From assembly GCA_965153455.1 (NCBI GenBank), contig OZ234493.1, positions 1-64,000 of the forward strand: 64,000 nt of DNA, in the 5' to 3' direction. Below are positions 11,249-37,289 of the stretch, piece by piece. The DNA is from Sphagnum compactum (taxonomy: Eukaryota). Within the stretch, counting starts at the first letter, position 1; every line of letters begins with the position of its first letter. Under the pieces are notes generated by a model that was not told the origin of the DNA, ran no database searches, and saw only the letters and a program-made list of their open reading frames with translations. Made by a program: the position numbers and the translations under genes.

Positions 11249-11504
11249 GTTCGCATTCTCTCTGTCTCTCTCGCATTGCTTGTTTTTCGTCTTTTTTTCG
11301 GGTCTCTGTCTATGTGTTTGTGTTGTGGCTTCTTTTTTTCCCCTTGTAAATGAGAGCGATCAGTGTTGTGGTCGTTGCTGCGATCGAGGCGGTCATTGCC
11401 ACCTGAACTTCTGCAATTATTTATTTACTAGTTTTAGCAGGATTTGTGAGACCCTGGGAAGGTAGTTCTTACTCTCACCGGCTCTTAGAGGAACGCGGAT
11501 GGTA

Positions 11505-15029: not shown

Positions 15030-15602
15030 ACCAAACAATGGGACCTCCCGCTCAACAGTAAAAAAAAATCAACCCCCTCCCCCTCCCATCCCCCCTTCAA
15101 CATATATATATAAAAAAAACCCCTCCCCCCCCTCCCTAGCCACTCAACAATGAAAAAATAGTTTTAAGAAAAAAAGTAACCCCCTTCCCCTCTTCCTTCC
15201 ACATGTCAAATGAAAGAGGAAAAAAAGAAACATTAACTTGTACCCCCCTCCCTTTCAAGAGTAAAAGAAATTAAAAAAATAAAATCAAGGCGCACCCCCT
15301 CCCCCTAAACAATGAATAAATATAATAAAACAATTCCCCTTGCCCCTCTCAACAGTAAAGACTAATTTATGAAAGTTACAAGCAGTAAAAAGGTAACAAA
15401 TAGTGAACCTTCAACAATAAAAAGTAATTTACAAAAGTTACAAGCAATAAAAAAAGTAACAAAAAGTAACAAAAAATGAAAAAGGTCAACAAAAAAAACC
15501 TGCCACTACGGGTTTACAGCCTGCCACTACGGGCCCTTTTTTGTGGTCAAACAGCCTCCAGCCTGCGTCCTTACGGGCGTAGTGGTCAGATCATATGTAT
15601 AG
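15030..15602 (+). mobile_element. Non-autonomous dispersed repeat with C/A-rich body and hairpin..ATA|GG end (family X)
   Basis: Shares poly-C/poly-A blocks, AAAAGTAACA repeats and the GGTCAAACAGCC...GATCATATGTATA|GG terminus with copies at 23.8-24.7k, 40.3-40.9k and 57.6-58.6k (reverse). Confidence 0.7.
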
Positions 15603-15626
15603 GCGCGGAGGTTTAGGGAGGGCACT

Positions 15627-16572: not shown

Positions 16573-16590
16573 TTTAGGGTTTAGGGTTTA
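16573..16590 (+). repeat. Interstitial plant telomere repeat (TTTAGGG)2.5
   Basis: TTTAGGGTTTAGGGTTTA seen directly. Confidence 0.75.
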
Positions 16591-16591
16591 T

Positions 16592-17262
16592 ATTTTTGGC
16601 GAAACTTGGCATAACTCCATAAATTTGGCAAAACTAAGACATAACTTTATATTTTTGGCAAAACTTCATATAATTCCATATTTTTGGCAAAACTTGGCAG
16701 AACTCCATAAATTTGGCAAAACTAAGACATAACTCTATATTTTTGGCAAAACTTGATATAATTCCATATTTTTGGCAAAACTTGATATAATTCCATATTT
16801 TTGGCAAAACTTCACATAATTCCATATTTTCGGCAAAACTTCACATAATTCCATATTTTTGACAAAACTTGGCATAACTCCATAAATTTGGCAAAACTAA
16901 GACATAACTCTATATTTTTGGCAAAATTTCATATAATTCTATATTTTTGGCAAAACTTCAAATAATTCCATATTTTCGGCAAAACTTCACATAATTCCAT
17001 ATTTTTGGCAAAACTTAGCATAACTCCATAAATTTGGCAAAATTAAGACATAATTCTATATTTTTGGCAAAACTTGATATAATTCTATATTTTTGAAAAA
17101 CTTGATATAATTCCATATTTTCGGCAAAACTTCACATAATTCCATATTTTTGGCAAACATTGGCATAACTAAAACACAACTTTATATTTTTGGCAAAACT
17201 TCACATAATTACATAAATTTGGCAAAACTTGATATAACTACATATTTTTGACAAAACTAAAT
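16592..17262. repeat. Minisatellite, ~29-bp unit, about 23 copies
   Basis: TTTTGGCAAAACTT...ATAATTCCATA recurs every 29-30 bp (e.g. GGCAAAAC at 16686, 16715, 16745, 16774, 16803, 16832). Confidence 0.93.
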
Positions 17263-17919
17263 CATAGCCCAAGAACTTTGGGAAAATAAAAATTAAGGTG
17301 CATTCCATAGTAACCCTAAACACTTTATGTGTAACCTTCATCTCCACAATGGCATTGGCTATGCACTTTCTTGGGTTTTTGGTATCCCCAAGCAACTTTA
17401 TGAACTGCACTCTCCAAACTTTGAAATTCTGTGACAAGACAGGAAAAGTCAACCAGGGATTGGAAAGTCAAACCCTGCCATATCTTCTAAATGGTGATAG
17501 TGTAGGGGAAGTTTTTTACATCATTGGATTCAGAACACTTGAAAATGGGGGGGTAGGTCATCTCCAAATATTAAAAAAAAAACCGCAATCAGGTCAAAAT
17601 GCCCATCAAACACAAAAACCCCAAATCTCGTATATCTTGAAAACCTGACACTTTTAAGCAAAAATAATTCCACCACTAGCTTTAAAACACATGAAAATGG
17701 GGGGTAGGTCACTTCAAAACTTTCAACATGTATCATAATTAACCCTTTATGCCCTCATCTATCAGCCCCCCCTGAAATTTCACACCCCCCGTATCTTTCA
17801 AATGGTGATAGTGTAGGGGAATTTTATTGCACCATTGGATTCAGAGCCCTCAAAAATGGGGGGGTAGGTCACCTCAAAACCCCAAAAAAAAAACTCAATT
17901 TTGGTGGGGACACACATGT

Positions 17920-17957
17920 AACCCTAAACCCTAAACCCCTAAACCCTAAACACTAAA
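17920..17957 (-). repeat. Interstitial plant telomere repeat (CCCTAAA)~5
   Basis: AACCCTAAACCCTAAACCCCTAAACCCTAAACACTAAA seen directly. Confidence 0.85.
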
Positions 17958-18710
17958 TCGCTTACTGCGCTTTACCTCCTGCTTTCCCACTTATCACGCT
18001 TTACACCGCTTTCCCCCGCTTACCGTGCTTCATTTTGCTTACCGTGCTTTACCCCGCTTCACCCCGCTAAACCCCGCTTTCTCCTGCTTTCTCCCGTTTA
18101 TTGCGCTTTATCGCGCTTTCTCCCGCTTACTGCGCTTCACCTCCTGCTTTCCCACTTATCGCGCTTTACGCTGCTTTCCCCCACTTACCGTGCTTTATCT
18201 TCCTTACCCCGCTTTACCCCGCTTTACCCCGCTAAACCCTGCTTTCTGCCGCTTATTCCGCTTTATCGCACTATCTCTCGCTCACTGTGCTTTACCCCGC
18301 TTTTTTCTGCTTATCGCGCTTTACCCCGCTTTCTCCCGCTTATTGCGCTTTATGTCGTTTTATCGCGCTCTTTCCCCCTTTCTCCCACTTATTCCGCTTT
18401 TTCGCGCTTTCTTCCGCTTATTCCGCTTTATCGCGCTATCTCCCGCTTATTGCACTTTACCTCGCTTTCTCCCGCTTACTACGCTTTACGCCGCTTTACG
18501 CCGCTTCTTGGGCTTTATGTTGCTTACCGCGCTTTACCCTGCTTTCTCTCGCTTACCACGCTTTAACGCGCTTTCTCTCGCTTACTACTCTTTACCCCGC
18601 TTTCTCTCGCTTATCGCGCTTTATCCGCTTTCTCCCGTTTACACCGCTTTACATTGCTTTCTCCCGCTTACCGCGTTTTACCGGGCTTTTTCTCGCTTTA
18701 CCCCCATGTT
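17958..18710. repeat. Degenerate simple repeat built from CCGCTTT/CGCTTTA units
   Basis: Dozens of (C)CGCTTT(A/C) units at 7-11-bp spacing; they grade into pyrimidine-rich low-complexity DNA up to ~19600. Confidence 0.9.
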
Positions 18711-20469
18711 AAGTTTATTTGCTTTATCCTCTTCTATGCAAATCCTTTTGCTTTCTCCCCTCCTTATGCAAAACTACCTTATAACTTTTGTCTCACCATA
18801 TTCTTTCTATATTTATCGCTTCACATTTTTACCGCTCAAATATTCTCCCGCATCGGTTCTACCTTTCCTAACCTTTACGTTTCCCTTTGCCCCGCTTCTC
18901 TTAAACCTTTTCGCTCTTGCCCATCCTTTCCATAATTTCCCGCTCTCTCCAAATTTTGCTAAACCTTTTTACTTCTCTTCCCTTTATGTTATACTTTTTT
19001 ACTTTTCACCCTTTTTTGTCAATTCCTTCTATGTCTTTCCTTGTTATTCTCCATTCCCCCTTCCCCCCCCCTTATTATAACTTTACTCAAAAGATTACGT
19101 CATCCCCCTTGTCTCAAACCCTCTAACCGTGCACAAAAATTATTTTCTAACAAAATTACAAATATTCCGCGCTTGCCCCGTTTTACCCCGATTATCCCAA
19201 TTCACCCCGTTCTACCCCCTTTTATTCTAAATATTTCGCCCCTTGCCCGCCCTATTCCGCTTTAACCAAAATTAATTCAAACCAAAATATTCCGCTTTTT
19301 CCCTCTCTATTCACCTTTGCCCAAAATATTTCGCCTCTCGCCCGCCCCACTCCCCTTTCACCAAAATTACCTTTTTTTGCTTTTATTTCCTCAAACTTCC
19401 CCACTTTTTCCGCTTTTCCAAAACTTCTATCTTCGCCCTCTCCCCGCTCCCCCGCTTTTCCCCTCTTCCGCGACTTATGTCTGATTCCTCCTCTTTTTAT
19501 ATCTTTTCTCAAACTTTTCAACTTATTTTTCGCTTATTTCAAACTATCCTTTCCCCCTATAATTATGCCGCACAAATTCCTCTCCCTTTAACTATAATTC
19601 TGCCCCACGGATTAACTTCCCCGCCGATTTCTTGTAACTAAATTATCGTAATTTTTCATAATTAAATTACTGTAATTTTTGTTAATTCAACTACGTTAAT
19701 CTCTCTAATTACATTCTTCTAATTCTGACTTCGATTCTTCTAATTTTTCCTACTACAAATTTCGCGAGATAAATTTACTCTACTGTATACAGATTAATCC
19801 AATCTTTTTTAATATTATACGTACTATAAGTTTCCATATTTCTATTATTGCAGCTTTCCACTATTTGATGCTTGAAGTTTTTAAAAACTTCAAATATTGT
19901 TGTTTTATGTGATTCAATTCATGTTATCTTTTTCTCATTGTGTTTTTTCACATTTTAATACTATACTTTTCAATATTTTCGTTAATGTAATTTCTATAAT
20001 TTCGTTGCGTTTCTGTAATTTTTCGCAAATGAATTATTGTAATGTTATGCTATTCCCATACTCTAATTTCTTCTAATTTAACTACTACAATTTTTGGTAA
20101 ATAAATTCACGCAATTATCAATATCAAAATTTTGCTGGTCAAACAACCCCCCCCCCCCCCCCCGCCTTCCGCCTTACGAGTGTAATGCTTACATCATAGG
20201 TATAACCCATTTACACCATAAATCCAACAATTCTACGATTCTCGAAAACAATACAAAAGAGAGAGAACAAGATATAACAAAGGAACAAACATGATCGTTC
20301 TTACGTTCTTTTTTAAAGAGAATCTGCTCTTTGCATAATCAGCTACCTCGTTTTTTCCTTCGTAAATCAACAAGTTACGTGCACCCGCCAATACATTAGA
20401 TAAGGATCAAGTCTAGTGGTATTATATAACTCGTGCATAATTGCTGTTTTGCCTCAAACCCGCAACCTG

Positions 20470-21945
20470 ACGGGCTCGTGGTAGTTACCCTGCGAGCAAC
20501 TAAATTGGCCTTGCGGATGGCTTTAAAAAGACCTCTTTTCAAAGAGACTGCAGCTCCTTTGGAGTCCAGAGACACCGAAACTTACAATCTGTCAGTAGAC
20601 ACAACGTCTTTTTGTTTCTTTTAGCATGAACCTCTGTCCTAACATGATCTCGTCGCTTCTGATGGGAGATACACATCTACGCTGGTTTATCCAGAAGGTG
20701 GAAAAAACATGGGGGCGAAGGAACTGAAAGCACCGTCCATTCATTAGCACCTGATGATCTTCGTACGAGGAACAAATCTAATGTTCCCGCTGTTGCTTGG
20801 TGTGGAAGCATTTTTATAGGATATTATGAGCAAGAAGCGGATGAATTATCGACCGGACAGATGTTGCATCTACCTGTTGGTTCTATCTGCACCCCAAACT
20901 TGACTGTTCAGAAAAGCTGGTCGGTGTTACCAGAATAACTAGCACTGTAAAGGGCGTTACTGGTTATGACGTTATTCTTAACGACGCAGAATGTCACAAC
21001 CGTGTTGTGATCACGAATGCTCATGCAACTTCAATTTTGACTTGTGATAGGATAGCCTCACAGAATTCCCGAAGAATTAGTAGACCGTACAGCAAAAAGA
21101 CGAACTGGCTTCAAGACCTGTAGCAATGTTGTCTGAGGTGCATTCCTTTAAGGAGCCTATTGATTCAAAAAGATTGAGATTGACCTCAACATTTCATTTT
21201 CTATTGAAATGGGACGTTCGAGGGAGTGACTCACATAAACATTCGCATTTCACCGAGGTGGGAAAGAGCCAGCAACTTGGGTTCAAAGTTCTCGTTCAAG
21301 GTGAGAGTACTACATCGTCGAGTCAAATGGTAGGCAAGGCAATCTCTGAATTGATGCACCGAGAAGATGCAACTCGTGATCTAATTTCTCGTAGCCCCGG
21401 TCCACATGACTTTCTCCTTCTAGGTGTGCGGTCCCCTCCGCTGCCATACCCGCAAGGGACTAGAGCAGCTCCTGGCCTGCTCTCAAAACTGCAGCCAATA
21501 CTGGTGCTCCATACAGTGAACTCCACCCAGTGAAATGCAATAAACTCGCCGAGTGTCCTTTGGATATTGTTACATCCTCTCAGGACCTCGTTCCATGCTC
21601 ACTTTAGCAACATTAACAATATTCCAAAGACCATTAGCACATGTCATGAGATGCTAACAGGCTGGTACATCATGAAGAGAATAAGTTCAGATCCAATATT
21701 AAGTCTTAAGAGCTTCTGATCTTTATTCAAGTGGTGGCCTTGTAGCTACCCTGCAAGCAACAAAATTGGCCTTGTGGATGGCTTTAAAAAGACCTCTTTT
21801 CAAAGGGACTGCAGCTCCTTTGGAGTCAAGAGACACCGGAACTTACAATCTGTCAGTGGACACAACGTCTTTTTTGTTCCTTTTAGCATGAACCTCTGTC
21901 CTAACATGATCTCATCGCTTCCGATGGGAGATACATATCTACACT
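20470..21945. repeat. Local direct duplication (20470-20685 vs 21735-21945)
   Basis: Both copies carry TACCCTGC(G/A)AGCAAC..GGCTTTAAAAAGACCTCTTTTCAA..TAGCATGAACCTCTGTCCTAACATGATCTC. Confidence 0.85.
21333..21458 (-). pseudogene. murA: C-terminal fragment of plant MurA (UDP-GlcNAc enolpyruvyl transferase), copy 1
   Basis: Minus-strand translation LAGMAAEGTAHLEGESHVDRGYEKLDHELHLLGASIQRL matches the MurA C-terminal LAG..AEG.T....H(I/V)DRGYE....L..LGA.I.R motif. Confidence 0.8.
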
Positions 21946-23769
21946 GCTCCTCCATTCCTGCACTCTCTGTTGGAGCTCCTCAGGTGTTGCGGACCGAGTC
22001 TCAATTTGCTCGAATCTACAGGATTTAGGATCTGGGTTTTGGACCATGACCCGCAAGCTTCTCGGTCCATAGAATGCGTGACCAGATTGCAACCGTCGAT
22101 GGTCGCGGATGCCAATTCTCGTACATAATTTTGTCGTGCGTCAGCAGACTTGGCATTATACTTTCGATGCATCGGACTGGCAGATTCCCGAAACCTGCAA
22201 ACCGTGACCGGCATGCAATATCTGAGCAATCATGGGTCGATAATATGGAGAGACGTAGATCATGTTTAAGAGCCTCGTGTAGAAGAAGGGCGTGGATAAA
22301 GTTCTGTGGGCTGCCAAAAATTCTTCCACTTCGGAGGTCTGGTTGCTGCCTGAGCGTCTTTTCCTTCTGGTCCCGATCTCGATGGGTGAACCTTTGAGAC
22401 CGTGTCGCAAAAAAATAGCTGCGAGCGCCTCAAAAAATGGAGAATATGTTCTTACGGCAGAATCCGACGTCGTTCAAAAATATTATGTTGGATCCTGCCG
22501 GCAATTAAAGCGTATGTCGCGCTCGTGATCGATGTGCCTTCCCGTGCTTTCGCTTTCTGTTTTCATAGCTCCTGTATGCAGCGTAAAGGTCGATGACATC
22601 TGACAATGCGCAGGTGCTCGTTTGCTGCGGCAAAAGCAACTCCTGGAAGTAATCAAGGACAGGGTTCTAGCACGGCTTGCTTACAAGTTCCCATCTCAGG
22701 TAATGATGGAGTGCTCAACCCTAAATTCCTTTTTCTCTCAGCATTCTTCGGAGACATCAAGTACTTTTTTTCGTGCTTCAAAAATATATGGTCATGCGAA
22801 CCTTCAAATGTGGGTTAACGAACTTGCTTTTGGGAGCAGGAAATTGAAAGTATGCCGGTAGATTGTTTCCTCCTCTGGATCCAGATCACCGTGACTTTGC
22901 GTGGTAAGTGGGACCTGGTGAAGCAATCCTCTGGTCAGTGATATAAACTACTGTGTACGAGCTGGGTGGTGGACTGTCTTTCCACTGCAAATATATGGAT
23001 GCAAAGATAGCACAATGCTAAACCTGGGATTTTCTTTGGAATACTCTCCATCCCAGCAGCCATGGGTGATACACTATTTTGGTTCATGGTAGGGGTATGG
23101 TTGCAGGTGCGACAAAAGGGGTGGTGGGGGTACATTTGCAAAGACAGGTGGTCGGAAGATCACACTACCCGGCACCGACCCTGAATGATGTCGATGACCC
23201 TAAACCCTGATGACCTCATAGTTGTCTATATCTTGAATAAAATAAGGGCTTTCTAGAAGTCCCAAAAGTTTTTTGGGCTGCCAATTATCCCTCATTTGTT
23301 CTGACCTCCCATCCAATAGCTTACCAGTAATCGGAGCAAGAAGATTTAGTTTTCTCACTCAAAAATTACGCGTATACCTAGAATTCAAATAGTTATGGAT
23401 ACTCACCGCGATGAGTCTCTAGCTCATCCTTATGTGATCCTGTTCAGTGTCGATGAAGGCCTGGTGATGGCCATGGGAGACGATGGAAGAGCAAGCCACT
23501 ATACCGGACAGGCAACTACTGGCAAGGCTTGTCCTGGTCAGAGAGGAGGCTCACCCAGGGCTCTGTTGAGTGGTGGCCTTCTACTCCAATGCAATGACAG
23601 ACCCACAGATTTAAACGGAATCTGCCGCAGCCTGAGGTGGGTCCAAGATCAGCATATTGAGTTATTTTAATTGCAACTCACATTACTGAAGATTCAAGAA
23701 AATAAGACCAGACCCTAAACCCCTTGCCCGGCGCAGCGCATGCAAGCAGCATTTTTGCAAGTGCTGGGT

Positions 23770-24727
23770 TTTTTGGAGGGTTTAGGCAGGCTGTTAATGA
23801 GCCCGAAATCCAGAAGCTTAGGGTCGTTTTGGACGACTTTCAAATAAACAAATAAATAAATAGCCCTGGGCGCACCCCTTTCCCCCTGAATAATCGAAAA
23901 ATACCCTCACCTTGCCCCCTTGAATAACAAAAAGTTTGGAAAATTTAAAAAATGGAATAGCCTATTAAGTAGATGGTTTACCTCGGACATCCGGAAAAAA
24001 CACCTATGAACCCATGAGTGCCCCCATGAGTGGTTACTTTCAACCGACCCCATGAGTGCCCCCTCCCATGAATTTGTAAAAAAAAAAAACCCCCCGATGA
24101 ACCTCTCCCTAGCCACTCCGCAATGAAAAAAACATTTCTTGAAACCCTAAATGTACCCCTTTTTCCCCTCCTTCTACCTTTTCATATATCTAGGGAAAAA
24201 AAAAACATTAACCTCCCCCCCCTCCCCCTCAACGGTAAAAAAAAAAGAAGAAAAAAAATCAACCTGCACCCTTTCCCCCGGTGCACCCTTTCCCCCCTCC
24301 TCCTTCCACCTTTTCATATATCTAGGGCAAAAAAAAAACATTAACCTCCACCCCCCTCCCCCTCAACAGTTAAAAAAAATAAAGAAGGAAAAAAATCAAC
24401 CTGCACCCTTTCAAGTTCCCCCCTCGCACAATCACATACACAATATAAACCCTGGCCCTTCTCAACAGTAAAAAGTAATTTATCAAAGTTACAACCAATA
24501 ATAAAAGGTACAAAAAGTAACAAACCCTTACCCCTTTCACTAGTAGAAAGTAACTTATAAAACTTACGACCAATAAAAAAAGGTACTAAAAGTAACAAAA
24601 AGTGAAAAAGGTCAACAAATACAGCCCGGCACTATGCAAAAAAAGCCCGGCACCGCAATGTATTTTTCCTGGTCAAACAGCCCACAGCCCACGACATTAT
24701 GACCATAATGCCAGGATTATATAGATA
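23770..24727 (+). mobile_element. Family X dispersed repeat copy
   Basis: C/A-rich body, AGCCCGGCAC repeats, GGTCAAACAGCCC, hairpin CATTAT-GACC-ATAATG, end GATTATATAGATA|GG. Confidence 0.7.
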
Positions 24728-25218
24728 GGATTCAGGGTGGACGAACTTTTCTCCTGGGGAAATTAAAGAATAGCTCGGAGAAAATGGATAAACAATACTT
24801 ATCAAATTGAAAACCTTTACCATCAAAGAGGTATATAATATGGATTTGTATGGAGAACCTTAAGCCGTATCACAAAACGAATCAAGAATTATTTATTGAA
24901 GTCTGCTTTATTGGACCCCTCAAATGTTTCGGATATACATGTGGACCACCCAAGGATTTTTTTTGGTCTATTTATGTTTTTTGAATACATTTAACAGGGT
25001 ATAAACATTTAATGTTGTGTAAGGAATATTATTGGCCAGCTAATACAACTTATCATAAAAGTCTGGCCAGTGTTTTATAAACTTTTTTTTACCACAAAGT
25101 TTGGCCAATTTGGGACCATTTATTTTCCATGAAAAATCCTTCAAATAGGTTGAAATTTGAAACCATATATTTCAGGTGCAAAATTGGCAAAAAATTTGGC
25201 AATAAAACAAATCCCAAG

Positions 25219-25237
25219 TTTTAGGGTTTAGGGTTTT
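25219..25237 (+). repeat. Interstitial telomere repeat (TTTAGGG)2
   Basis: TTTTAGGGTTTAGGGTTTT seen directly. Confidence 0.65.
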
Positions 25238-25361
25238 GGCAAGTAGGCAGTAGTACGTACATTACTACACATACTGAGTAGGCCAATCACGTGGTTGCCT
25301 GAAAAAGAAATTAAAGAAATATAAATAAAAGAAAATGGGGCAAGGGATGATGGGGAGGTTA

Positions 25362-25485
25362 ATGATGGAAAGAAGGATGGATGGACGGAAGGACCGAGGG
25401 ACGGACGAATAGATACATAGAAACTAAGAAAGAAAGAAAGAAAGAAAGGAAGACGGACGGATGGATGGACGGACGTACGTACGTA
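25362..25485. repeat. Compound tetranucleotide microsatellite (GGAT/GGAC/GAAA/CGTA)
   Basis: Direct reading. A complementary TCCA/TCCG tract lies at 40365-40420. Confidence 0.85.
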
Positions 25486-26703
25486 GAGCTCTTTGATCCC
25501 ACTGCCATGGCCACAATCCGTGAATGTCTGTGACGAACAGACACCACCACATTTGCTTTAATATATAGGATCTTGCAATGAGAAGGAATCTTGTAAATAC
25601 GATCTAGTTTACTTTTACTGTCATTTGTAAGAAAAATTAAACAATATCCCCTTTAAGTAAATGTTTTTTTTCTTATCGTAAACGGCAGGGCTAGCATGTG
25701 ACGCATGCCGTGCCCGTCGTGTTTTGTTTGTCCTTGACGGCGAACATGTGTCGTTCGAATAAACCTTGGCCGGATTGTGTGGTGGATGAAATTGAACCCG
25801 TAAAATGCAATTTCGTCCCATGAATGAAGATTTGATGTGAGTCGTAATGGTTTACAATACAAATGTCAGTCGCGAGAATGAAACCCTAATGTTAAATTAT
25901 GGATAATGGAGCGGGGGAAAATTGATATTTACTTAAAATGGATGTCATATTAATTTCCTTAAAGAATTACTTTGTTATTTCCAAGACCGGGGGGAGGGAG
26001 GGGGGGGGAGGGGAAGGAGGTTCAATTCCCTGCACCCTCGGTCCTCCTATTCTTGTCTGAGCTCTGGTTCGACGATCAGCCTAAACCCCCCCTGCCGCGC
26101 CCCCCTCTTCCCTCTTCTACTTGCGATTGGTCGCCTTTTGTTATTTTTCGTCAAGCCGCACACATTTTCGCCCTCTTCTTATTCGATTTTCCGTCGCTCG
26201 AATCATTCATTTTGTTAGGATGTCTTTTTTTTACCAGCGGTTAAAATTGTTGAACTTTTTCCCTCAGCGAACGAATGTAAACGCGGAGAGCCCAGAGTCC
26301 GCTTTACAGAGCTTTGAGCATTTGGAGGATAGAATCAATGTTGTTTTCGTCTTTCCACTCGCACACTTCCATGCTTTGGAAGGGGCCACGGGGCGCACGG
26401 GGCACGGTGGTTAGATGGCATCGCAAATTCGACTGCATATATACGCCTGAACCTTTATTCCGGCACTGAGACCCGGTAAGCGCACGGACCGGATGTCTTC
26501 GGTGTGTGCAGGAATTTGATCTTGCGTAGATGTTATGTTCGGGAAAACCAATGCGTACACTGAAATCAGAACTGCATTTTCCTATGGTTCTAGGTTGCAG
26601 GTTGGTTTGACTGGGCTCGAGTCATTCGTGTTTTGCCCGTGGACATTGTCGATCACAACTCTTATGCCTTCTCAAAACATCTGTCCATTATCAACCGATA
26701 TTC

Positions 26704-29700
26704 ATGGCCGATTTCCGATGCCCCGAGTGTAACATTTGTTTCGCCACTTCTCATCAACGCGATGGACATCGCCGAATGGTGCATCAATCAACCTGTAAGA
26801 TTCGTACCACCACCGGTGGAATTACCGTCAATCGATCGATTGACGGCAAATATCCTTGCCCCGTGGAGGGCTGCAAGAGCACATTTGAACGCAGTGACAA
26901 GCTCCAGGGCCATTTCAAAGTGCGACATGCGGAACAGAGCGATTCCGCCCTAAATCAAGATCTTGACGACAACGACGCGCAAATTAGAGCAATGTCCCTG
27001 GGCATGTTAATCCAACCGCCCATCGAACAAACACCGAAACTGCTCCGTGATGTCGGCCTTGCGGTTCTCAACATCGCGGATGGCATTCGTCTCCTGTTCT
27101 GCAGGGTTTGCGACGTCTGTCTGGAGCCCGAGGCTCGCCGTGTGCATAACCACTTACTGGGGCACGACAATTGGAGAGCTCCCAAACGACATCGCAACGG
27201 TGGCCTCCGTCGCGTGACTGGGATCCCACCTGTTACGGATTTCGCATCGTCGTTCGACGAGATCAAGTTCACCCAGTTGCAAGACCCTCGCCTGGAAAGG
27301 TATACCACATCTCCACAGCAGGACCTTTTGCCGGTGGTCCCAGGGATAAAGGTTGTGAACGGATATCGATGCGAGGCGGATGGATGTGCGTACTATTCCG
27401 CCACCAAGAAGATTATGGGCAATCATCGTCGGGCCAAACATTTCTTCTTACCGGTTCATGCCAACGGTCAACCGTGTCAGGTGCAGCGCCTTTTGAAAAA
27501 GGTCGGGTACACCGTGTATTTTGGTGTGGACCACCAAAATGTGGAGCTCGAAGGCGCAGGTGCACGTTTCGTTGCAGGCCCACCAATGTTCCATGCGGAA
27601 CGCGGCACCAAATCCATCCATTCGTGAATTGAGTCCATGGCTGAGAGTGTCTCGTTGGCTCGCCGTCAACCACATCATTCCGGAAGGTACGCCGTTGGAC
27701 CGCATCAAGCGAGCGAGCGTGCTTCCGAACCCAATCGGCGAGGAATCCAATTTGGATCGTTTGCCCTCGATGGTCCGAGCGTATTTGGAGAATGCGCAGG
27801 CCATGATCGGTCGTGTGCCATACCATCTCAGGCGGTTGGTCGTTTCAGTGGTAGATTCCCCCCTGGCCGCGGTGGGGCTCAACCAGCTTTGGGTGCCATC
27901 CACCATAACCAGATATTGTACGTTGATGACCAAGCTACTCACTATGATGGTTCGATCCAGGGACAGCGCCCCGGTGGATGACGAGCCATTCGTCAACGTT
28001 CTGGGCGATTTGCATTCGGATCTCGGAGATGCGCTGGAGAATCTCATCTCTCACATTCGAAGTCGACGAGACGCGGACGGGGATGACGAAGATCTCGTTC
28101 CCATCCACACGGTGTTGCTCCACATTTGCAGATCCGGTCGTTCAACACGGGCTCCAAACCGGTTGTCCGATAATCAGGTTCCTGATCATGAACAGCTTGA
28201 AGTCGGACCCTCCGTCGACCAACCTCGCGTTCGAACATGTTCGACGCGTGTCGGGTCCCGTAGCCATTCTCCAGTATTGGTGGAGATGCACGATCCTCAT
28301 GCAGCTGGTGCGTCCGATGTGGCAGCCCGATCACCCCCCCATCCCGTGGTGCGAAGCCGACGAGTGGCTCGCTTGCGTTCGCGAGAACGCCAAGGACACA
28401 CCGTTCAGCAGACTGCGAGAGACCATGCGCCTCGCGGGGACGATGTCGGGCGACGAACCCTGCATCCCGAGACTCGTTCGGATCGGTCCCATGGCGTGCA
28501 CGATCGATGGTCAAGCCGTCACCATCGACACTTTACGAAACCTGGTCGGCGAACTGCTCCGTGGGGCAAATCAGGTGATGAGAAACCAATTGTTGCTAGG
28601 ACTCCGGAGAACCTGGATCGACCGGGTGATAGCGGAGGGTAGCGTCGCGGACAGGGCGAACGAAGACGAAGTCGGGTATTCTTTCTTGTCGGATGACCGT
28701 AACGAATTTCATCGTCACTGACAAGATCTTGCCATCCACCTTTTCAGCGATCGGCGTACCCGAGGTCTTTTCGTCAAAGGCACAGAAGGCGATCGATCCA
28801 TCGTATGGAATCAAAATGCCTTGGCGATGTGGGCCAAGGCGGCGGATCGTATGCACACGTTGTTATTTTTGCTCATGCATTTCACCGTCGGCGGTCCTCC
28901 TCGCGGCGAGGAGTACAGGAGCTACCTCCTTCGCAACACGGAGCATTTCGAGAGGACATTTTATTGGTCTGCTGGCACCATCATGACCTTCCAGAGATAC
29001 CACAAGGGCGCCAACGCAGGGCGGCCGATCAAACTAATACCCCGTTTCCTACCCCCAGAACTCAATTCACTCTTCATCGAATATATGTTGCTGGTGAGGC
29101 CGGTGCAGTCCTTCATCGCGGGTTTGCGCGGAAACATTGACGCGGCCCGACAACACATGGACCTTTGGGCCATTCAACGAGATGTCGCCATGGACGGCGA
29201 AGATGTTTCCCGTTTGGTGGCCACGGCGTTCCTCGAGCGCGCAAATCTCGATCTGGGGATCGCGGATTATCGTCACCTGGCCGCTTACTTCGGTAGTGCC
29301 ATCAAGCAAAGTTATTGCACGGAATTTCCCATCGACGACACGTCGGGGCACTCTTCGACCACGGCCGCACGACAGTACGCCAATTGTTCCAACAATCACA
29401 GATTCATGGACAGTCAACAGATGTACACGTACAGATTGGCCGCCGAAGCGTGGCATCGCTTGTTGCAACTCGACCGGAGCCCGGTCCGAAACCCTCCGAC
29501 CGGTGGTTCGACCGACGAGGTTCCTATGGGTGTCGACTGACCCGATGGCCATTGTTCGTCGCAACCCCAGTGCGCCTCTCTCCTCGCATCTCTCGTGTGT
29601 TTGGTCACACAGACCGTCCCTCAACCAACCTTGCCGCCACCGCCCGAGGATCAAACGCACGAAGTGCGTTCTCTGCGAGCTCTTCGTCGACTGGGCCACG

Positions 29701-31424
29701 CATAGTGGACGTGCAAGGAACAAGGTTTGGCCGTGACGTTGGTCCTGGAAAACAGGGTCGATGTTTTGGTGGTCATGCCCACCGGACACGGCAAAACGGC
29801 TGTGTTCATGATCCCGCCGATGGTGACGGCTCGCACCGTCATCGTGGTGGTGCCCCTGACGATCCTCGTCCGCGGACACGAAGCGGACGCAACCCGAGCC
29901 GGCTTACGACATGCGACCTACGGCACGAACACGGTCACATTCGACGATCCTCCGTCCATCTTGTTCGTATCGGTGGAACGTGCGGCCAGTCCCGGGTTCG
30001 TGGAACTCACGCATATGTTGAACCATTTGAAAAAGCTTCACTGCGTCGTCGTGGATGAAGCGCATTTGCTGCTGTCAGATTTCAGACCCGTCATGAAGCG
30101 CCTTTTGTCGTTGTGGGCCGTGGGATGCCAGCTCGTCGCGTTGATGGCCTCCCTGTCCCCTTCCGAAGAGACGGACCTCAAGATCGTGATGTCCGCGAGA
30201 TTCGCCGTCGTCCGGATGTCCACGGTGCGCCCGTTGATCGAGTACGTCGTCGATGAGGTGGCCGACGTGGACGAGGAAATCGTTCAACAGCTCATTTAAT
30301 GGGATTGCAACGTCTCTTCCGAGACGGACAGGGCCATGGTGTATTGCTTGACGCGACAGTCGGTCGAGCAAGTGGCGTCCATGGCCAACAACGTGGCGTG
30401 CGTGAGGACCGCTCACCTTCACGCCCATCTCGACGACGACGCTAAGAAGGCGCAGTTGCAGTCGTGGCTCTCGGGCGAAGCGCGCGTCGTGGTGGCGACC
30501 GCGGTCATCGGCTGCGAGTACAACTATCCGTCGGTCCGGCTCGTCATTCATCGCGGATCTTTCAGATCTTTTGCTGCTCTGCACCAAGAGTCCGGGCGAC
30601 TCGCCCGTGACGGCCGACCGAGTACCAGCAGAGTGATTTCTAGCACGAAATCTAGAGCCGAAGCTCTGCACCTCGATTCCTCCTTCGCCGAGCCCAACGT
30701 TTGGATCACGGACACGGAGAATTGTCGACGCCACCATCTTCATTTGGCTGTGGACGGCCAACCGCAACAGTGCAGCCTGATTCCCGTCGCACAACCCTGC
30801 GACAACTGTTTGCGGCAATGGCGAGCGGTGTTGCAGCAACCCTCCTCGCCGTTGCCGATGCTCAGCGTGCGTGGCACGGCGCTCACCTCTTTCGTGAACG
30901 AGGATCGCGCAGCCCTGACGAATTTTTGTCGATTCGCTGGTCCCGAAGAACTCGATTGTCTCTTGTGTTGTGTTTACGGCGGTGATGGAAACGTGCGTCA
31001 CCCCAGTCAAAATTGTCCGTTGTTGCTGGACGGTCGTCGATGCTTCAAATGTCTGGGATCGCATCCTAGGTCGGATTGTCGTAATTCCATTCCCCAATCA
31101 CCCGACGTTTGTCCCAAGTGCCACCTTTCGCACAACGGGCCAGCGTTGGACAACGTCCCATTGCACGAAGGAAGGTACGGTGTCGATTGCCCGGGTCAGA
31201 TCCGGGGCGAACGATATCGAATTCTTATTTGGGCCATTTGGCGTCGCAACCCGTCGGACATGCGCAAGGCCATGCCGAAATTGATGAACATCACTCGCGA
31301 CGAAGAGTTGGCTCGATGAATGGGACTGAAGGCCTTCGGCCGGTCCGTTACCAACTTTGCACGATTGGCGGATGCATGCATTCGAATGCTGGAGCGGGAC
31401 CATAGATGTACAAGCCGATTTTAG
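26704..31424 (+). pseudogene. Decayed C2H2-ZnF / DUF3505-like / tyrosine-recombinase / RecQ-helicase / Zn-knuckle polyprotein gene (telomere-linked-helicase-like, probable mobile-element gene)
   Basis: Two N-terminal C2H2 fingers (CPEC..HRRMVH; CPVEGC..HFKVRH). DUF3505-like LFCRVC..H..GYRC..C..H..CQVQRL..YFGV, then SPWL..SRW. YR-like GGPPRGEE, YHK, DYRH, GHS, QYA. Helicase MPTGHGKT, VVDEAH, QESGRLARDG, RecQ Zn module CRR..C..CDNC, then CxxC..H..C knuckles. Two frameshifts (~27590, ~28130) and five in-frame stops (28719, 29538, 29703, 30297, 31317). Confidence 0.88.
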
Positions 31425-31694
31425 GATTGCGATCGTAAGTCCGACGACTGGTAGCCTCCTTCGGGCGTATTGTTCATGCCTCTTTCGGTTGCTGTCGACA
31501 TCTTGTTTCGTGCGCACCGGCAGGAAGTCGACGAGCGTTCAACAGTCGGAGTCTGTAAATTAAATTAGGTGGGGTTGCGACAGCGTCGAGAGCTTCTCAG
31601 AATGTCGGATTGAAAAAATCGAAGGGAATTGGATTACAATATGTGGATATCTGTTGGTTCTGCACTGATGACAAGATCATTGTTGATATGGCAG

Positions 31695-31793
31695 CTAGCA
31701 TTTCCAAAAGGACTCGCTGCTACAGCCGGAAGACTAAGAGTAGCACCCAGCACTCCAATAATATTTGATGTTCAATTGTTGTACATACCTAAT
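31695..31793 (+). pseudogene. Terminal exon fragment of a plastid FKBP-type peptidyl-prolyl isomerase
   Basis: CAG|LAFPKGLAATAGRLRVAPSTPIIFDVQLLYIP resembles the C-terminus of thylakoid FKBP16-3-type proteins. Confidence 0.7.
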
Positions 31794-31807
31794 GTCTCAT
31801 TTTCTAT

Positions 31808-33776
31808 TGGCGAGTAAAAAGCTTTCGACCCTGAGAACCTTCCGATTAACAAAGGAATCGGCTCACCATTCAGGGAGTGCATTCAAAGATCATCTTTTTC
31901 TTAACAATGATGTTGTACAAATCGTGCGGATTCTCTCCTGAGGTTCTTTTGGCCATTTTCCAAATGAAATTTGAAAACATTCACCAGAAATATAGAAGGT
32001 TGCCTCCCTAAAATCTGCAATTTGTAGAGTTGTCGCCAATGGATGCTGGATTCTTTTGGGAATGCTCACCGATGATGCCGCAGCTGCAGGACCGAAAAAT
32101 AGTGGATTGCACTTGAATTGCATACACATTTTTTTTGCCACAGAGCATGCACCTTCTACTTTGCTTTCATGTACCAGGAAATGCAAACTACACAACTGTA
32201 TCAGCTTCTTCATCCGCTTCGTACCTGGAGCTTTCTTAGTGAATTGACGATGCTTCAGTGACTCCATTTCGAGAGTTTTCTCATATCTTACGATCTCCTA
32301 GTTTGCTAAACTTCCACTTCACCTCAATTCATTACAGATCGATACCTCAAGGTTCTATCTGCACTCCAAACTTGACTGTTCAAAAAAGGCTGGTCAGTGT
32401 TACCAGAATAACTGGCACTGTAAAGGGCGTTACCGGTTATGTTATTCTTAACTACGCAGAATGTCACAACCGTGTTGTGACCACGAATGCTCATGCAACC
32501 TCCATTTTGACTTGTGATAGGATAGCCTCACAGAATTCTGGAAGAATTAGTAAATCGTACAGCAAAAAGATGAACTGGCTTCACGACCAGCGGCAGTATT
32601 GTCTGAGGTGCGTTCCTTGAAGGAGCCTATTGATTCAAAAAGGTTGAAATTGACTTCAACATGTCATTTTCTAGTGGCGAGTACAAAGCTGACGACCTTA
32701 AGACCCTAAACCCGATTGACAAAGGAATCAGCTCACAACTCAAGTAGTGTATTCAAAGAGATCATTTTTTTTCTTAACAATGGTGATATACAAATCTTGT
32801 GGATTCTCTCCTGAGGTTCTTTTGGCCATTTTCCAAAAGAAATTTGAAAAACATCCACCGGAAATATTGAAGGTTGCCTCCTTAAAATCTACAATTTGTA
32901 CAGTTGTCGCTAATGGATGCTAGATTCTTTTGGGAATGCTCACCGACGATGCTGCAGCAGCAAGACCGGAAAAAATAGTGGATTGCACTTGAATTGCAGA
33001 CACATTTTGTTCGCCACAGAGCATGCACCCTTTACTTTGCTTTCGTGTACCAGGAAATGCAAACTACACGACTGTATCAGCTTCTTCATCCACTTCGTAC
33101 CTGGAGCTTTCTTAGTGAATTGAAGATGCTTCAATGACTCCGTTCCGAAAGTTTTCTCATATCTTGCGATCTCCTAGTTTGCTAAACTTCCACTTCACCT
33201 CGATTCATTACAGATCGATACCTCCAGGTTCTATCTGCACTCCAAGCTTGACTGTTCAGAAAAGCTGGTCAATGTTACCAGAATAACTGGCACTGTAAAG
33301 GGCGTTACCGGTTATGTCATTCGGGTTGTGATCACGAATGCTCATGCAACTTCAATTTCGACTTGTGATAGGATAGCCTCACAGAATTCTCGTAGGATTA
33401 GTAGACTGTACAGCAAAAAGATGAGCTGGCTTCACGACCAGCAGCAATATTGTCTAAGGTGCGTTCCTTTAAGGAGCCTATTGATTCAAAAAGGTGGAAA
33501 TTGACTTCGACGTGTCATTTTCTATTGAAATTGGACGTTCGAGGGAGCGACTCACATAAACATTCACATTTCACCGAGGTGGGAAAGAGCCAGCAACGAA
33601 TCAAAGTTCTCGTTCAAGGTGAAAGTACCACGTCGTCGGGTCAAATGGTAGGCTGGGCAATCTCTGAATCGATGCACCAAGAAGATGCAACAGGTGATCT
33701 AATTTCTCGTAGCCCCAGCCAACATGACTTACTCCTGCGATGTGTGGGGTCCCTTCAATTGCCATACCGGCAAGGA
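31808..33776. repeat. Tandem ~870-bp duplication; its distal part is also copied at 20880-21458
   Basis: GGCGAGTA(A/C)AAAGCT starts at ~31809 and ~32676. The GGTTCTATCTGCAC..AAAGGGCGTTAC..GGAGCCTATTGATTCAAAA block occurs at ~20880, ~32350 and ~33227. Confidence 0.88.
33650..33774 (-). pseudogene. murA: C-terminal fragment of plant MurA, copy 2
   Basis: LAGMAIEGTPHIAGVSHVGWGYEKLDHLLHLLGASIQRL within ORF 33601-33843; paralogous to 21333-21458. Confidence 0.78.
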
Positions 33777-33800
33777 TTCCTCCTTTGCCGAACCCAACGT

Positions 33801-36633
33801 TTGTGGACATTTTGTGTGGAGAGATTATGATATACTTGTCCATACTACATTTGTTTTTTCACAAGCTCCGGTCTTTTACTTCTGCTTCTAGAACCAACAC
33901 TCAGTCTGGTTCGAGTTCTGCCTCTAGAGTCAAGACTAAGTTCGGTTCGGGTTGCAGCTGCGGACCTTGTTTGGAACCCGGATTTCGATATCAGACTGCA
34001 GCTCGAATGAGGACCTTAGTGATGTTTTGGATTGGCTAATGTATCATGAGTGCTTGTCAACATGTTTATTGAGTCTCAGATTGCTGCCAGAATAATGCAA
34101 GATAAATGCAAGGTGCGGATTTTGTAGAGTTGTTTGTGGACATTTTTTGCGGAGAGATTATGGTATACTTGTCCGTACTACTTTTGTTTTTTCAAAAGCT
34201 CCGCCCTCTTACTTCTACTTCGAGAACCAGCACTGAGTTTGGTTCGAGTTCTGCCTCTAGAGTCAAGACTAAGATAGGTTCGGGTTGCAGTTGCGAATCT
34301 TGTTTTGAACCCGGATTCGGATATCAGACTGCAACTTGAATGAGGACACTACCGATGTTTTGGATTAGCTAATGTATCACGAGTGCTTGTCAACATCTTT
34401 ATTGAGTCTTCGGATTGCTGCCAGAATAATGCAAGAGAAATGCAGGCTGCAGATTTTGTATAGCTGTTTGTGGACATTTTTTGTGGAGAGATTATGGTAT
34501 ACTTGTCCATACTACATTTGTTTTTTCAAAAGCTCCGCCCTCTTACTTCTGCTTCTAGAACCAACACTAAATTTGGTTCGGGTTGCAGCTGCGAATCTTG
34601 TTTGGAACCCGGATTCGGATATCAGACTGCAGCTCGAATGAGGACACTAGTGATGTTTTGGATTCGCTAATGTATCATGAGTGCTTGTCAACATCTTTAT
34701 TGAGTCTTCAGATTGCTACGAGAATAATGCAGGAGAAATGCTGGATGCAGATTTTATATAGTTGTTTATGGACATTTTTTGTGGAGAGATTATGGTATAC
34801 TTGTCCATATTACTTTTGCTTTTTCAAAAGCTCCGGCCTTTTACTTCTGCTTCTAGAACCAACACTCAGTTTGGTTCGAGTTCTACCTCTAGACTCAAGA
34901 CTAAGTTTGGTTCGGGTTGCAGCTGCGGATCTTGTTTGGAACCTGGATTCAGATACCAGACTGCAGCTCGAATGAGGACCCTAATGATGTTTTGGATTGG
35001 CTAATGTATCATGAGTGCTTGTCAACATCTTTACTGAGTCTTAGATTGCTGCTAGAATAATGCAAGGGACATGCAGGATGCAGATTTTCTATAGCTGTTT
35101 GTGGACATTTTGTGTGGAGAGATTATGGTATACTTGTCCATACTACATTTGTTTTTTCAAAAGCTCCGCCCTCTTACTTCTGCTTCTAGAACCAACACTA
35201 AGTTTGGTTCGAGTTCTGCCTCTGGACGCAAGACTAAATTTGGTTCGGGTTGCAGCGGCGGATCTTGTCTGGAACCCGGATTCGGATATCAGACTGCAGC
35301 TCGAATGAGGACCCTAGTGATGTTTTGGATTGGCTAATGTATCATGAGTGCTTGTCAACATCTTTATTGAGTCTCATGTTGCTGCCAGAATAATGCAAGA
35401 GAAACGCAAGATGCAGATTTTGTATAGCTCTTTGTGGACATTTTTTTTGAGGAGAGATTATGGTGTACTTTTTCCATACTACTTTTGTTTTTTCAAGAGC
35501 TCCGGCCTTTTACTTCTGCTTCTAGAACCAACACTCAGTTTGGTTCGAGTTCTACCTCTAGACCCAAGACTAAGTTTGGTTCGGGTTGCAGCTGCGAATC
35601 TTGTTGTGAACCCGGATTCGGATATCAGACTGCAGCTTGAATGAGGACACTACTGATGTTTCGGATTAGCTAATGTATCATCAGTGCTTGTCAACATCTT
35701 TATTGAGTCTTCAGATTGCTGCCAGAATAATGCAAGAGAAATACAGGATGCAAATTTTGTATAGCTGTTTGTGGACATTTTTTGTGGAGAGATTATGGTA
35801 TACTTGTCCATACTACATTTGTTTTTTCAAAAGCTCCGGCCTTTTGACTTCTGCTTCTAGAACCAACACTGAGTTTGGTTCGAGTTCTGCCTCTAGACTC
35901 AAGACTAAGTTTGGTTTGGGTTGCAGCTGCGGATCTTGTTTTGAACCCGGATTTGGATATCAGACTGCAGCTTGAATGAGGACCCTCGTGATGTTTTGGA
36001 TTCGCTAATGTATCATGAGTGCTTGTCAACATCTTTATTGAGTCTTCGGATTGCTGCCAGAATAATGCAAGAGAGATGTAGGATGCAGATTTTGTATAGC
36101 TGTTTGTGGACATTTTTTGTGGAGAGATTATGGTATACTTGTCCATACTACATTTGCTTTTTCAAAAGCTCCGGCCTTTTCCTTCTGCTTCTAGAGCCAA
36201 CATTAAGTTTGGTTCGAGTTCTACTTCTAGATGCAAGAGTAAGTTTGGTTCGGGTTGCAACTGCGGATCTTGTTTTGAACCCGGATTCGGATATCAGACT
36301 GCAGCTAGAATGAGGACACTAGTGATGTTTTGGATTCGCTAATGTATCATGAGAGATTGTCAACATCTTTATTGAGTCTTCGGATTGCTGCCAGAATAAT
36401 GCAAGAGACATGCAGGATGCAGATTTTGTATAGCTGTTTGTGGACATTTTTTGTGGAGAGATTATGGTATACTTGTCCATACTACATTTTTTTTTTCAAA
36501 AGCTCCGGCCTTTCACTTCTGCTTCTAGAACCAACACTGAGTTTGGTTCAAGTTATGCTTTTAGACTCAAGAGTAAGTTTGGTTCGGGTTGCAGCTGCGG
36601 ATCTTGTTTTGAACCCGGATTCGGATATCAGAC
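33801..36633. repeat. Tandem array, ~334-bp unit, 8.6 copies
   Basis: (G/A)TGGACATTTT..GGAGAGATTATG at 33803, 34136, 34470, 34768, 35101, 35434, 35771, 36106 and 36440 (spacings 333, 334, 298, 333, 333, 337, 335, 334). Confidence 0.95.
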
Positions 36634-37289
36634 TCGGAGAAGGTTGTTTGACTTCTTCCAAGCCTTTTTGATCTCATATCTTGGATATCATAATCATATT
36701 GAAAGCACAACAGTTTCAGAAAGTCACCGTTTACCTTCCTCCAACTTCGACCGAAGTTCTGGACACCTTGCTTTGGCAACACAAACAGAGATAGGTTTTT
36801 GAGTATTCAGAGCATGCATAGTGTCTACATTTCAGCTGACTGCTTGTCTTTCTTGGAGTTTTCTTCTCGTGCTGCGAGCCTGGGAGGAGGACGGGTTTCT
36901 CGGAATGGACGATGTGTTTTTCAGGACTTTTGTTCACAATAGTTGCAACGAGATTTGTTTCTCAGTTATGAGTGAGTGTTTCGACTACTTTGGAGTGGTT
37001 GGGTGCTCTTTTCGTACAACAGTTGCTGGGGGTTGGTGCAGGTCGTTGGGTTCGTTTATAGCTCTGAGCTATGTGCATCATGTGGATTGTGCTTACATCA
37101 ATTCCTCCGAGAAGGTTGACGACCCTTGTTCCTGATCTGCAAGGTCAATTCTGCAACTACCGAAACAGCTGATAGAAGGACCGGTCTCAATTGGTCAACG
37201 GCCAGGAAGAAGATTTGAAACCTGTATGATGTATGAACTAGAGAAAATGTGGATTTCTGAAAGTACCCGATTGTGCATGGATATGGCGG

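Follow-up and report, generated by a model that had tools for sequence, protein, structure and literature searches.

Telomere-linked helicases (TLHs) have been catalogued for more than 20 years, in fission yeast, the rice blast fungus, Ustilago, Fusarium, Botrytis and a choanoflagellate. In the accessible parts of these accounts the TLH domain, which Rehmeyer et al. are said to have defined in 2009, is still without an assigned role. The gene described here is located in a stretch of 64,000 nucleotides from Sphagnum compactum (contig OZ234493.1, positions 1 to 64,000 of the forward strand), the whole of which is called the window below. It is a single gene of ~1,570 codons on the plus strand that encodes, in this order, C2H2 fingers with OrsD, a helical middle, a tyrosine-recombinase-type catalytic domain, a RecQ-like helicase and a Cys-rich tail. 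An initial annotation, made from the letters of the window, had proposed an integrase in this region on the basis of short motifs. The predicted fold, profile-profile homology with controls and residue conservation now identify the region as a tyrosine-recombinase-type catalytic domain. This domain is probably the TLH domain, as judged from position, size and architecture rather than from alignment, and the recombinase fold most likely supplies the function of that unexplained domain. What is new here is a domain of the recombinase superfamily in a new fusion, invisible to family databases.

In a preprint on F. oxysporum, TLHs are described as having two N-terminal C2H2 motifs, Cx2-3Cx8-14Hx3-5H and Cx2-5Cx11-16Hx4-5H, RecQ motifs, and a conserved TLH domain of ~250 residues that is located immediately upstream of the helicase and was first defined in 2009; what the TLH protein does is called undetermined in the available part of the text (10.1101/2024.02.27.582403). 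Subtelomeric helicases of F. oxysporum, with 1317-1531 aa, carry DEAD and Helicase_C domains, and several of them also OrsD/DUF3505 (10.1101/2023.02.05.527183, available part). The same domain set is found in strain-specific subtelomeric copies in Botrytis (10.1101/2022.03.07.483234, likewise in part), and TLHs are treated as host genes in the accessible portion of a 2025 paper (PMC12857005). The words recombinase and integrase are absent from the available parts of three of these sources (10.1101/2024.02.27.582403, PMC12857005 and 10.1101/2023.02.05.527183). More generally, no paper tying OrsD/DUF3505 helicases or TLH proteins to a tyrosine recombinase was found in the literature within reach, paid papers and bioRxiv supplements being outside it.

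The window gene resembles the TLHs in several respects. According to the available parts of the published descriptions, the domain order is that of M. oryzae TLH1, S. pombe Tlh1/2 and the TLHs of U. maydis, F. oxysporum, B. cinerea and a choanoflagellate. The two C2H2 spacings of the window gene, Cx2Cx12Hx4H and Cx4Cx12Hx4H, fit the patterns given in the portion of the literature that we could consult, and the ~250-residue domain reported there ahead of the helicase agrees in position and size with the recombinase domain. A helicase core of RecQ type is also present in the window family (as seen from its PDB matches and recQ_fam), and both families are multi-copy. The helicase SJAG_05173 of S. 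japonicus (P0099) belongs to the family of the window gene and is the sole named link to a yeast. In contrast to the TLHs, the window copy is located in a plant genome of bryophyte type, and the 64 kb do not place it at a chromosome end.

Two classes of eukaryotic mobile element are also close in some of their features. Cryptons and the captains of Starships (DUF3435) are, like the window family, eukaryotic multi-copy tyrosine-recombinase genes without long terminal or inverted repeats. They differ in that the window domain matches no Crypton-type Pfam family, and the accessible part of the literature searched does not attribute a fused RecQ-like helicase to them. The RepHel protein of Helitrons is a single large transposon protein with an HUH nuclease N-terminal to a Pif1-like SF1 helicase. 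The logic shared with the window gene is a tyrosine-using DNA-cutting domain placed N-terminal to a helicase, whereas the cutting domains (HUH versus recombinase fold) and the helicases (Pif1-like SF1 versus RecQ-like SF2) are different.

The recombinase-type domain

The catalytic domain is encoded by window 28722-29537 (+), as delimited by motifs, conservation, the AlphaFold model, the structure search and hhalign. The translated segment that was analysed, P0001, has 272 aa (window 28722-29540, +) between the stops at 28719 and 29538, and its residue n starts at window base 28722+3(n-1). The initial annotation listed five motifs, and all five are found at their places in P0001 in one plus-strand frame (positions divisible by 3). 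The first, G57-G-P-P-R61-G-E-E64 (28890-28913), contains the codons of R61 (28902-28904) and E64 (28911-28913), and Y93-H-K95 (28998-29006) ends with that of K95 (29004-29006). D182-Y-R184-H185 (29265-29276) provides R184 (29271-29273) and H185 (29274-29276), G209-H210-S (29346-29354) provides H210 (29349-29351), and R217-Q-Y219-A (29370-29381) holds the putative nucleophile Y219 (29376-29378). H210 precedes Y219 by 9 residues, in agreement with the initial annotation. The spacings along R61-K95-R184-H210-Y219 are 34, 89, 26 and 9 residues; those of the catalytic residues in Cre are 28, 91, 23 and 9.

Simple tyrosine recombinases (XerA/XerC/XerD/XerH, Cre and phage integrases) have in common with the window domain the catalytic fold, R-x-x-E, a Lys on the beta2-beta3 hairpin, Arg-His, and the His nine residues before the Tyr. 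In contrast to them, the window domain is eukaryotic, goes undetected by Pfam and lacks the His of HxxR, and the protein that joins it to a helicase and fingers is about five times the size of theirs.

Searched exhaustively with phmmer, 1.84 billion cluster representatives yielded 1250 homologues of P0001 at E ≤ 1e-3, with 232 at E ≤ 1e-10. Conservation was evaluated in an alignment of 81 sequences, namely P0001 and the domain excised from 80 proteins covering it. E64, K95 and Y219 are invariant (81/81), R61, R78, R184 and H210 are present in 80/81, and H53, Y93 and W244 in 77/81. Position 185 is H in 68/81 and Q in 13/81. A separate alignment of 82 whole proteins gave an identical set of invariant columns. 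Among named proteins, the catalytic pattern is kept in those of Schizosaccharomyces japonicus (SJAG_05173), Xanthomendoza sp. and Piccolia ochrophora. A Calypogeia fissa protein retains it except for R61 and E64, both located outside its matched stretch. The stops in the frame and the dead state of the window copy could suggest that the motifs are a chance pattern in non-coding DNA or a misread frame. Against the 1250 homologous representatives, the confident fold described below and the homologues aligning in the same frame, this idea has a negligible probability and can be called already refuted.

The AlphaFold2 model of P0001, computed with an 82-sequence alignment, has a mean pLDDT of 86.6 and a pTM of 0.83, and its confidence is below 50 solely at residues 210-224, the stretch from the His to the Tyr. 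In the model, R61 is predicted at the start of a helix, R184 within helix 180-197, and K95 in the turn between predicted strands 86-93 and 104-109. With VIA-align, the model was aligned to all 48,161 representative PDB chains. The best match is the recombinase XerA (4a8e, Z 12.3, rmsd 2.8 over 153 residues), followed by a second XerA structure (5hxy, Z 10.1), XerH (9.7), Cre (9.4), XerD (9.2), Brujita integrase (8.9), a Staphylococcus integrase (8.5), IntI (8.2), Tn1549 Int (7.6), SSV1 Int (7.3), lambda Int (7.1) and Flp (6.6). Topoisomerases of type IB are also among the matches (the bacterial enzyme 3m4a, Z 7.2; 2b9s, 6.5; 2h7f, 6.2). Ranks 1-29 all belong to the tyrosine recombinase/topoisomerase IB superfamily, except rank 20 (9hjt, Z 5.4), which was not placed, and the first clearly unrelated structure has Z 3.4. 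In a Foldseek search of the PDB nothing reached E ≤ 1e-3; recombinases (XerH, XerA, Cre, IntI) fill the 12 best rows, at E 0.1-1.1. Because these rows are weak, the verdict rested on the search of all representatives. AlphaFold and a structural search had been proposed as checks of the integrase assignment, and they returned the tyrosine-recombinase fold.

The same search contains proteins that use this fold otherwise, i.e. the phage regulators SroF (9rd5, Z 6.7) and MrpR (8a0a, Z 5.1), and yeast Ndc10 (3sqi, Z 5.2; 4aco, Z 5.0). The domain could thus be a recombinase relic that is kept for DNA binding only, as in Ndc10, MrpR and SroF, with the helicase doing the sole chemistry, and an NDC10_II cluster among the leads of a language-model search (0.86) goes in the same direction. 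However, all catalytic positions but the His of HxxR are kept in 80-81/81 diverse sequences, which is unexpected for a purely structural module, and active recombinases match far better. We therefore regard a role in DNA binding alone as very unlikely.

Homology to integrases is also detected at the level of sequence profiles. The 81-sequence family profile was aligned using hhalign with 13 diverse integrase (PF00589) domains drawn from the E. coli K-12 genome record, since the XerD relatives that were retrieved were all at least 88% identical and hence unfit for a profile. The score was 45.7 (P 2.4e-6, probability 88.9%, 179 columns), versus 12.0 for the reversed template and 10.1-13.5 for ten column shuffles, with P 0.28-0.69 across these 11 scrambled controls. 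The alignment pairs R61 with XerD R148, E64 with E151, A181 with H244, R184 with R247, H185 with H248, H210 with H270 and Y219 with Y279. These XerD residues, which we take to be its catalytic residues, were checked by motif position. The domain stays below the gathering threshold of Phage_integrase (PF00589), the relation holding at the profile-profile level only, and none of the Pfam families for Crypton/Starship captains (DUF3435) or NDC10_II matches the domain. The language-model search returned clusters of fungal hypothetical proteins at 0.95-0.97 and, as leads only, a tyrosine recombinase cluster at the same 0.86 as the NDC10_II cluster.

Gene layout, decay and copies

The N-terminal part of the gene (26704-27555, +) starts with an ATG at 26704 and is read in frame 1, in which homologues align by tblastn up to 27555. 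It encodes two C2H2 motifs, C37-x2-C40-x12-H53-x4-H58 (26719-26784, +) and C83-x4-C88-x12-H101-x4-H106 (26857-26928, +) in the numbering of P0002, the first of them overlapping a weak Pfam zf-C2H2 match at P0002 residues 35-58. OrsD (PF12013) follows the fingers (E 1.4e-10, 42.1 bits, above the cut-off). A middle region (27551-28132, +) is read in frame 2, and the 220 aa that immediately precede the recombinase domain (28059-28718, +) form a helical region, modelled by AlphaFold as helices and a small sheet (pLDDT 85.3, pTM 0.59). By position, these 220 aa lie where the core-binding domain of a recombinase would be expected. The RecQ-like SF2 helicase and the Cys-rich C-terminal part are encoded by 29706-31316 (+), with DEAD at 29721-30158 (+, Pfam 2.8e-17) and Helicase_C at 30318-30614 (+, Pfam 1.5e-11). 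The helicase of the homologue P0009 has its best PDB sequence matches with RECQ5, RecQ, BLM, RECQ1 and WRN (7e-21 to 2e-13), and TIGR00614 recQ_fam is the best NCBIfam model (5e-33 to 8e-54, below the curated cut-off). The tail (30900-31316, +) matches no Pfam family and shows Cys/His clusters that are zinc-knuckle-like, e.g. C-x2-C-x3-H-x4-C.

This order (OrsD, ~500 aa, the recombinase domain, then DEAD and Helicase_C) is found repeatedly in the family. Of 41 homologues that were scanned, 19 have both OrsD and a helicase domain, most others being truncated at one end. Two full-length members, P0088 (1499 aa) and P0323 (1519 aa), come from metagenome-assembled genomes labelled at NCBI as 'bacterium' and 'Gloeomargaritales cyanobacterium', labels that likely reflect mis-binned eukaryotic DNA. 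Among named organisms, the bryophytes Sphagnum and Calypogeia supply the closest relatives of the gene. Given mainly fungal relatives, it perhaps arrived horizontally.

The window copy is a dead relic, with two frameshifts (~27551-27555 and ~28060-28130) and five in-frame stops. By tblastn, homologues align to 26713-27555 (frame 1), 27551-28132 (frame 2) and 28059-31250 (frame 3), and two of them, P0018 and P0013, go through the three frames in this order with no gap in between. From 27948 to 31319 there is one plus-strand frame, broken by a TGA at 28719-28721, a TGA at 29538-29540 in the linker from the recombinase domain to the helicase, a TAG at 29703-29705 just ahead of the helicase core and a TAA at 30297-30299 inside the helicase, and closed in this copy by a TGA at 31317-31319. 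In 8, 16 and 7 contigs of three sequencing runs, other copies have G at position 28719 (GGA, Gly), and homologous proteins have Gly there as well. At 31319, A is replaced by G (TGG, Trp) in 15, 13 and 12 contigs of the three runs. As the other copies read Gly and Trp at these places, the stops at 28719 and 31317 are private to the window copy, and the original frame therefore continued to the next in-frame stop, near 31420. The gene is embedded in a G+C-rich island from ~26.3 to 31.4 kb (0.53-0.64 versus 0.3-0.46 in the surroundings).

Metagenome contigs scanned with the N-terminal part of the gene yielded 50 related loci (numbered with L below) of 54-95% identity, some of them duplicated between samples. 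In two DNA runs, 1353 and 1925 contigs aligned to a 13.8-kb stretch (window 20000-33800) with 80-99% likeness, and C>T plus G>A account for 746 of the 1771 changed places in the first of these runs. Metatranscriptome contigs also cover the gene; they may contain DNA. The family is thus old, decayed and repeated in this plant lineage, which fits a mobile element.

At the 5' side, similarity between the window and other copies starts at 26300-26304 for 14 loci (blastn) and at 26327-26329 for 9 more. Other copies stay alike upstream of 26300-26304 and break at L018:378, L044:3460 or 2667, L055:7219 and L020:956. Most of the 5' non-coding part of the family is therefore missing from the window copy, and since positions 522-925 of L020 match window 25578-25983, the loss probably amounts to ~2.4 kb. 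On the 3' side, similarity ends at scattered places from 31388 to 32363. Downstream of the gene (31797-33527, +), a unit of ~870 bp occurs in two tandem copies (31797-32676 versus 32664-33527, 87.9% by self-blastn), and similarity to the closest copies (L017, L018 and L024) stops inside this unit, at 32222 or 32363 (equivalent to 33098 or 33239). A contig joining 25237 to 32828 was considered as the junction of a skipped segment and rejected: with only 20 matching letters on one side, it was judged to be a chance match between similar short strings.

Two further repeats were seen around the copies. A sequence upstream of the gene (20871-21457; 340-590 bp) recurs past the 3' flank at 32343-32676 and 33219-33775 with 85-90% identity. 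A repeat of ~375 bp is located beside or inside several helicase copies (L018:1-377; L060:3089-3463; L019:4545-4916 and 4964-5336); in L060 the helicase region itself carries the insertion. This repeat is probably a small non-autonomous transposon.

Possible roles: movement, exchange or a host function

We consider it probable that the recombinase-type domain of the family is active and works for the movement or exchange of the element itself. In intact relatives, Y219 would attack a DNA phosphate to give a 3'-phosphotyrosyl link, and R61 and R184 (with E64 holding R61), K95 on its hairpin and H210 would stabilise the transition state and the leaving group. The helicase in the same chain could unwind or branch-migrate the DNA that is cut and rejoined by the recombinase. 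The two activities together may carry the DNA segment of the gene from one chromosomal site to another or recombine it between sites, which in fungi would chiefly be chromosome ends. Mobility is inferred rather than observed, since neither element ends nor target sites could be defined; catalysis and the cooperation of recombinase and helicase are likewise inferred.

Several results weigh against this assignment. As the initial annotation had anticipated, automated annotation leaves the region unnamed: Pfam recognises 0 families on P0001 (E ≤ 1), on this region in 41 homologues (E ≤ 0.01) or in 18 short homologues (E ≤ 10), NCBIfam gives helicase matches and no recombinase family, and PHROGs no recurring family. 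PDB sequence searches with P0001 alone and with an 18-sequence profile returned 0 matches at E ≤ 10, and hhalign of the 18-sequence profile against XerD alone reached a probability of 0.23%, only the GHS...Y stretch being aligned. In the alignment with the 13 integrase domains, XerD K172 and K95 are four residues apart, with a gap between them, so that this pairing is approximate and the Lys assignment rests on the predicted hairpin. The 220 aa upstream of the domain gave generic helical-bundle matches only (Z ≤ 6.5) and no recognisable core-binding domain. A Parastagonospora nodorum protein has Arg at the position of H210. Nor was an intact copy found, the longest open frame among the 50 loci being 843 aa. 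L044 shows neither inverted nor direct terminal repeats, and the 50-locus comparison revealed no terminal repeats, target-site signature or empty site. In one polyA RNA run, from a differently labelled organism and of which ~12% was read, mean depth was 0 to 0.8 over 26454-31524. Finally, the catalytic constellation had been called complete, and this stands for R-K-R-H-Y, whose conservation in homologues (80-81/81) had been named as a check. It does not stand for the His of HxxR: three residues before R184 is A181, at a position that varies among the 81 sequences (S in 21, A in 19 and N in 10, among others).

Type IB topoisomerases have the pentad R-K-R-H-Y and no HxxR His. With that His missing, the site of the window domain therefore resembles the pentad of these enzymes, and the superfamily fold is likewise common to topoisomerases IB, telomere resolvases and the window domain. 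The domain could then be active without being a transposase, as a host DNA swivel or strand-transferase, similar to topoisomerase IB or a Xer resolvase, that acts with the RecQ-like helicase on telomeric or subtelomeric intermediates. Such a protein would be a single-chain analogue of RecQ plus topoisomerase, and the multi-copy state would result merely from subtelomere duplication. The structural matches to 3m4a, 2b9s and 2h7f are consistent with this proposal, as is the fact that the 50-locus comparison found no element ends, and papers, in their available parts, treat helicases of this kind as genes of the host that are linked to telomeres and were duplicated along with subtelomeres. However, the recombinases (Xer, Cre and phage integrases, Z 8.2-12.3) are closer in structure than topoisomerases IB (Z 4.9-7.2) or the protelomerases TelA and TelK (Z 3.3-3.4), and the hhalign match is to recombinases. 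Tens of decayed, diverged copies are found in a plant lineage, and the window copy is located in ordinary plant DNA, ~22 kb from an NB-ARC/LRR gene, a pattern that a conserved host function would not be expected to show. A host role is thus unlikely in our opinion, and movement or exchange of the element itself the better supported function.

The initial annotation went further and suggested that the integrase would recast such helicases as transposases. The multi-copy decay of the family would fit this suggestion, and recombination at chromosome ends or a topoisomerase-like role would fit the same data. In its widest form, the suggestion would make the TLH genes of fungi, a choanoflagellate and bryophytes not host helicases but eukaryotic mobile elements of an unrecognised class, each with this one large gene, whose protein would join a recombinase to a helicase much like the Helitron protein joins a nuclease to one. 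We put this forward tentatively, as a possibility that falls short of being probable. If it were true, insertion or exchange at chromosome ends would explain the telomere linkage, the multi-copy state, the presence or absence among strains and the scatter across distant eukaryotes. A TLH domain that cuts and rejoins DNA would offer a concrete mechanism for the spread of these genes among chromosome ends, and could point to recombinase-helicase mobile elements of a new kind, which have spread into bryophyte genomes as well.

Telomere-like repeats and neighbouring sequences

Short interstitial runs of TTTAGGG, the telomere unit of plants, are enriched in the window, with 10 matches (at most 2 mismatches) versus 0.48 expected. 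They are located at 16573-16586, 17922-17957 and 25220-25240, the nearest run being 1.47 kb upstream of the ATG of the gene. Two runs in opposite orientation flank a 1.3-kb block of tandem repeats (16587-17921). The L033 copy breaks off at the position corresponding to window 28506, where (TTTAGGG)6 and 3 more units set in, followed by GTTACATGG (L033:2176-2249). This junction was considered as a chromosome end and rejected: the string of telomere units and GTTACATG is also a loose contig end at window 24721, in an unrelated repeat, which looks more like an inserted repeat beginning with telomere-like units. The two junctions suggest a separate repeat family that starts with such units.

The window contains a resistance-type NB-ARC/LRR gene of 727 aa with a winged helix (2738-4921, -; NB-ARC E 1.5e-41) and is therefore plant DNA. 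An EXS fragment is found at 37986-38444. Just downstream of the element, a satellite array (33799-36634) consists of ~8.5 units of 333-334 bp with 88-91% identity. Other tandem or dispersed repeat blocks are located at 11502-13088, 16589-17286, 17958-18704 and 51885-57508; that at 17958-18704 is strongly C-rich, with a GC skew of -0.56 in the 18-20 kb bin. A dispersed repeat of ~450-550 bp has at least 4 copies in the window (24059-24732, 15058-15604, 40449-40894 and 57593-58533). It is very abundant in the sequencing runs, where depth reaches up to 3888 over 24149-24609 versus ~400-800 nearby. Two A+T-rich blocks (44375-46886 and 61088-63909; G+C 0.21-0.30) are 74-77% alike over ~2.6 kb.

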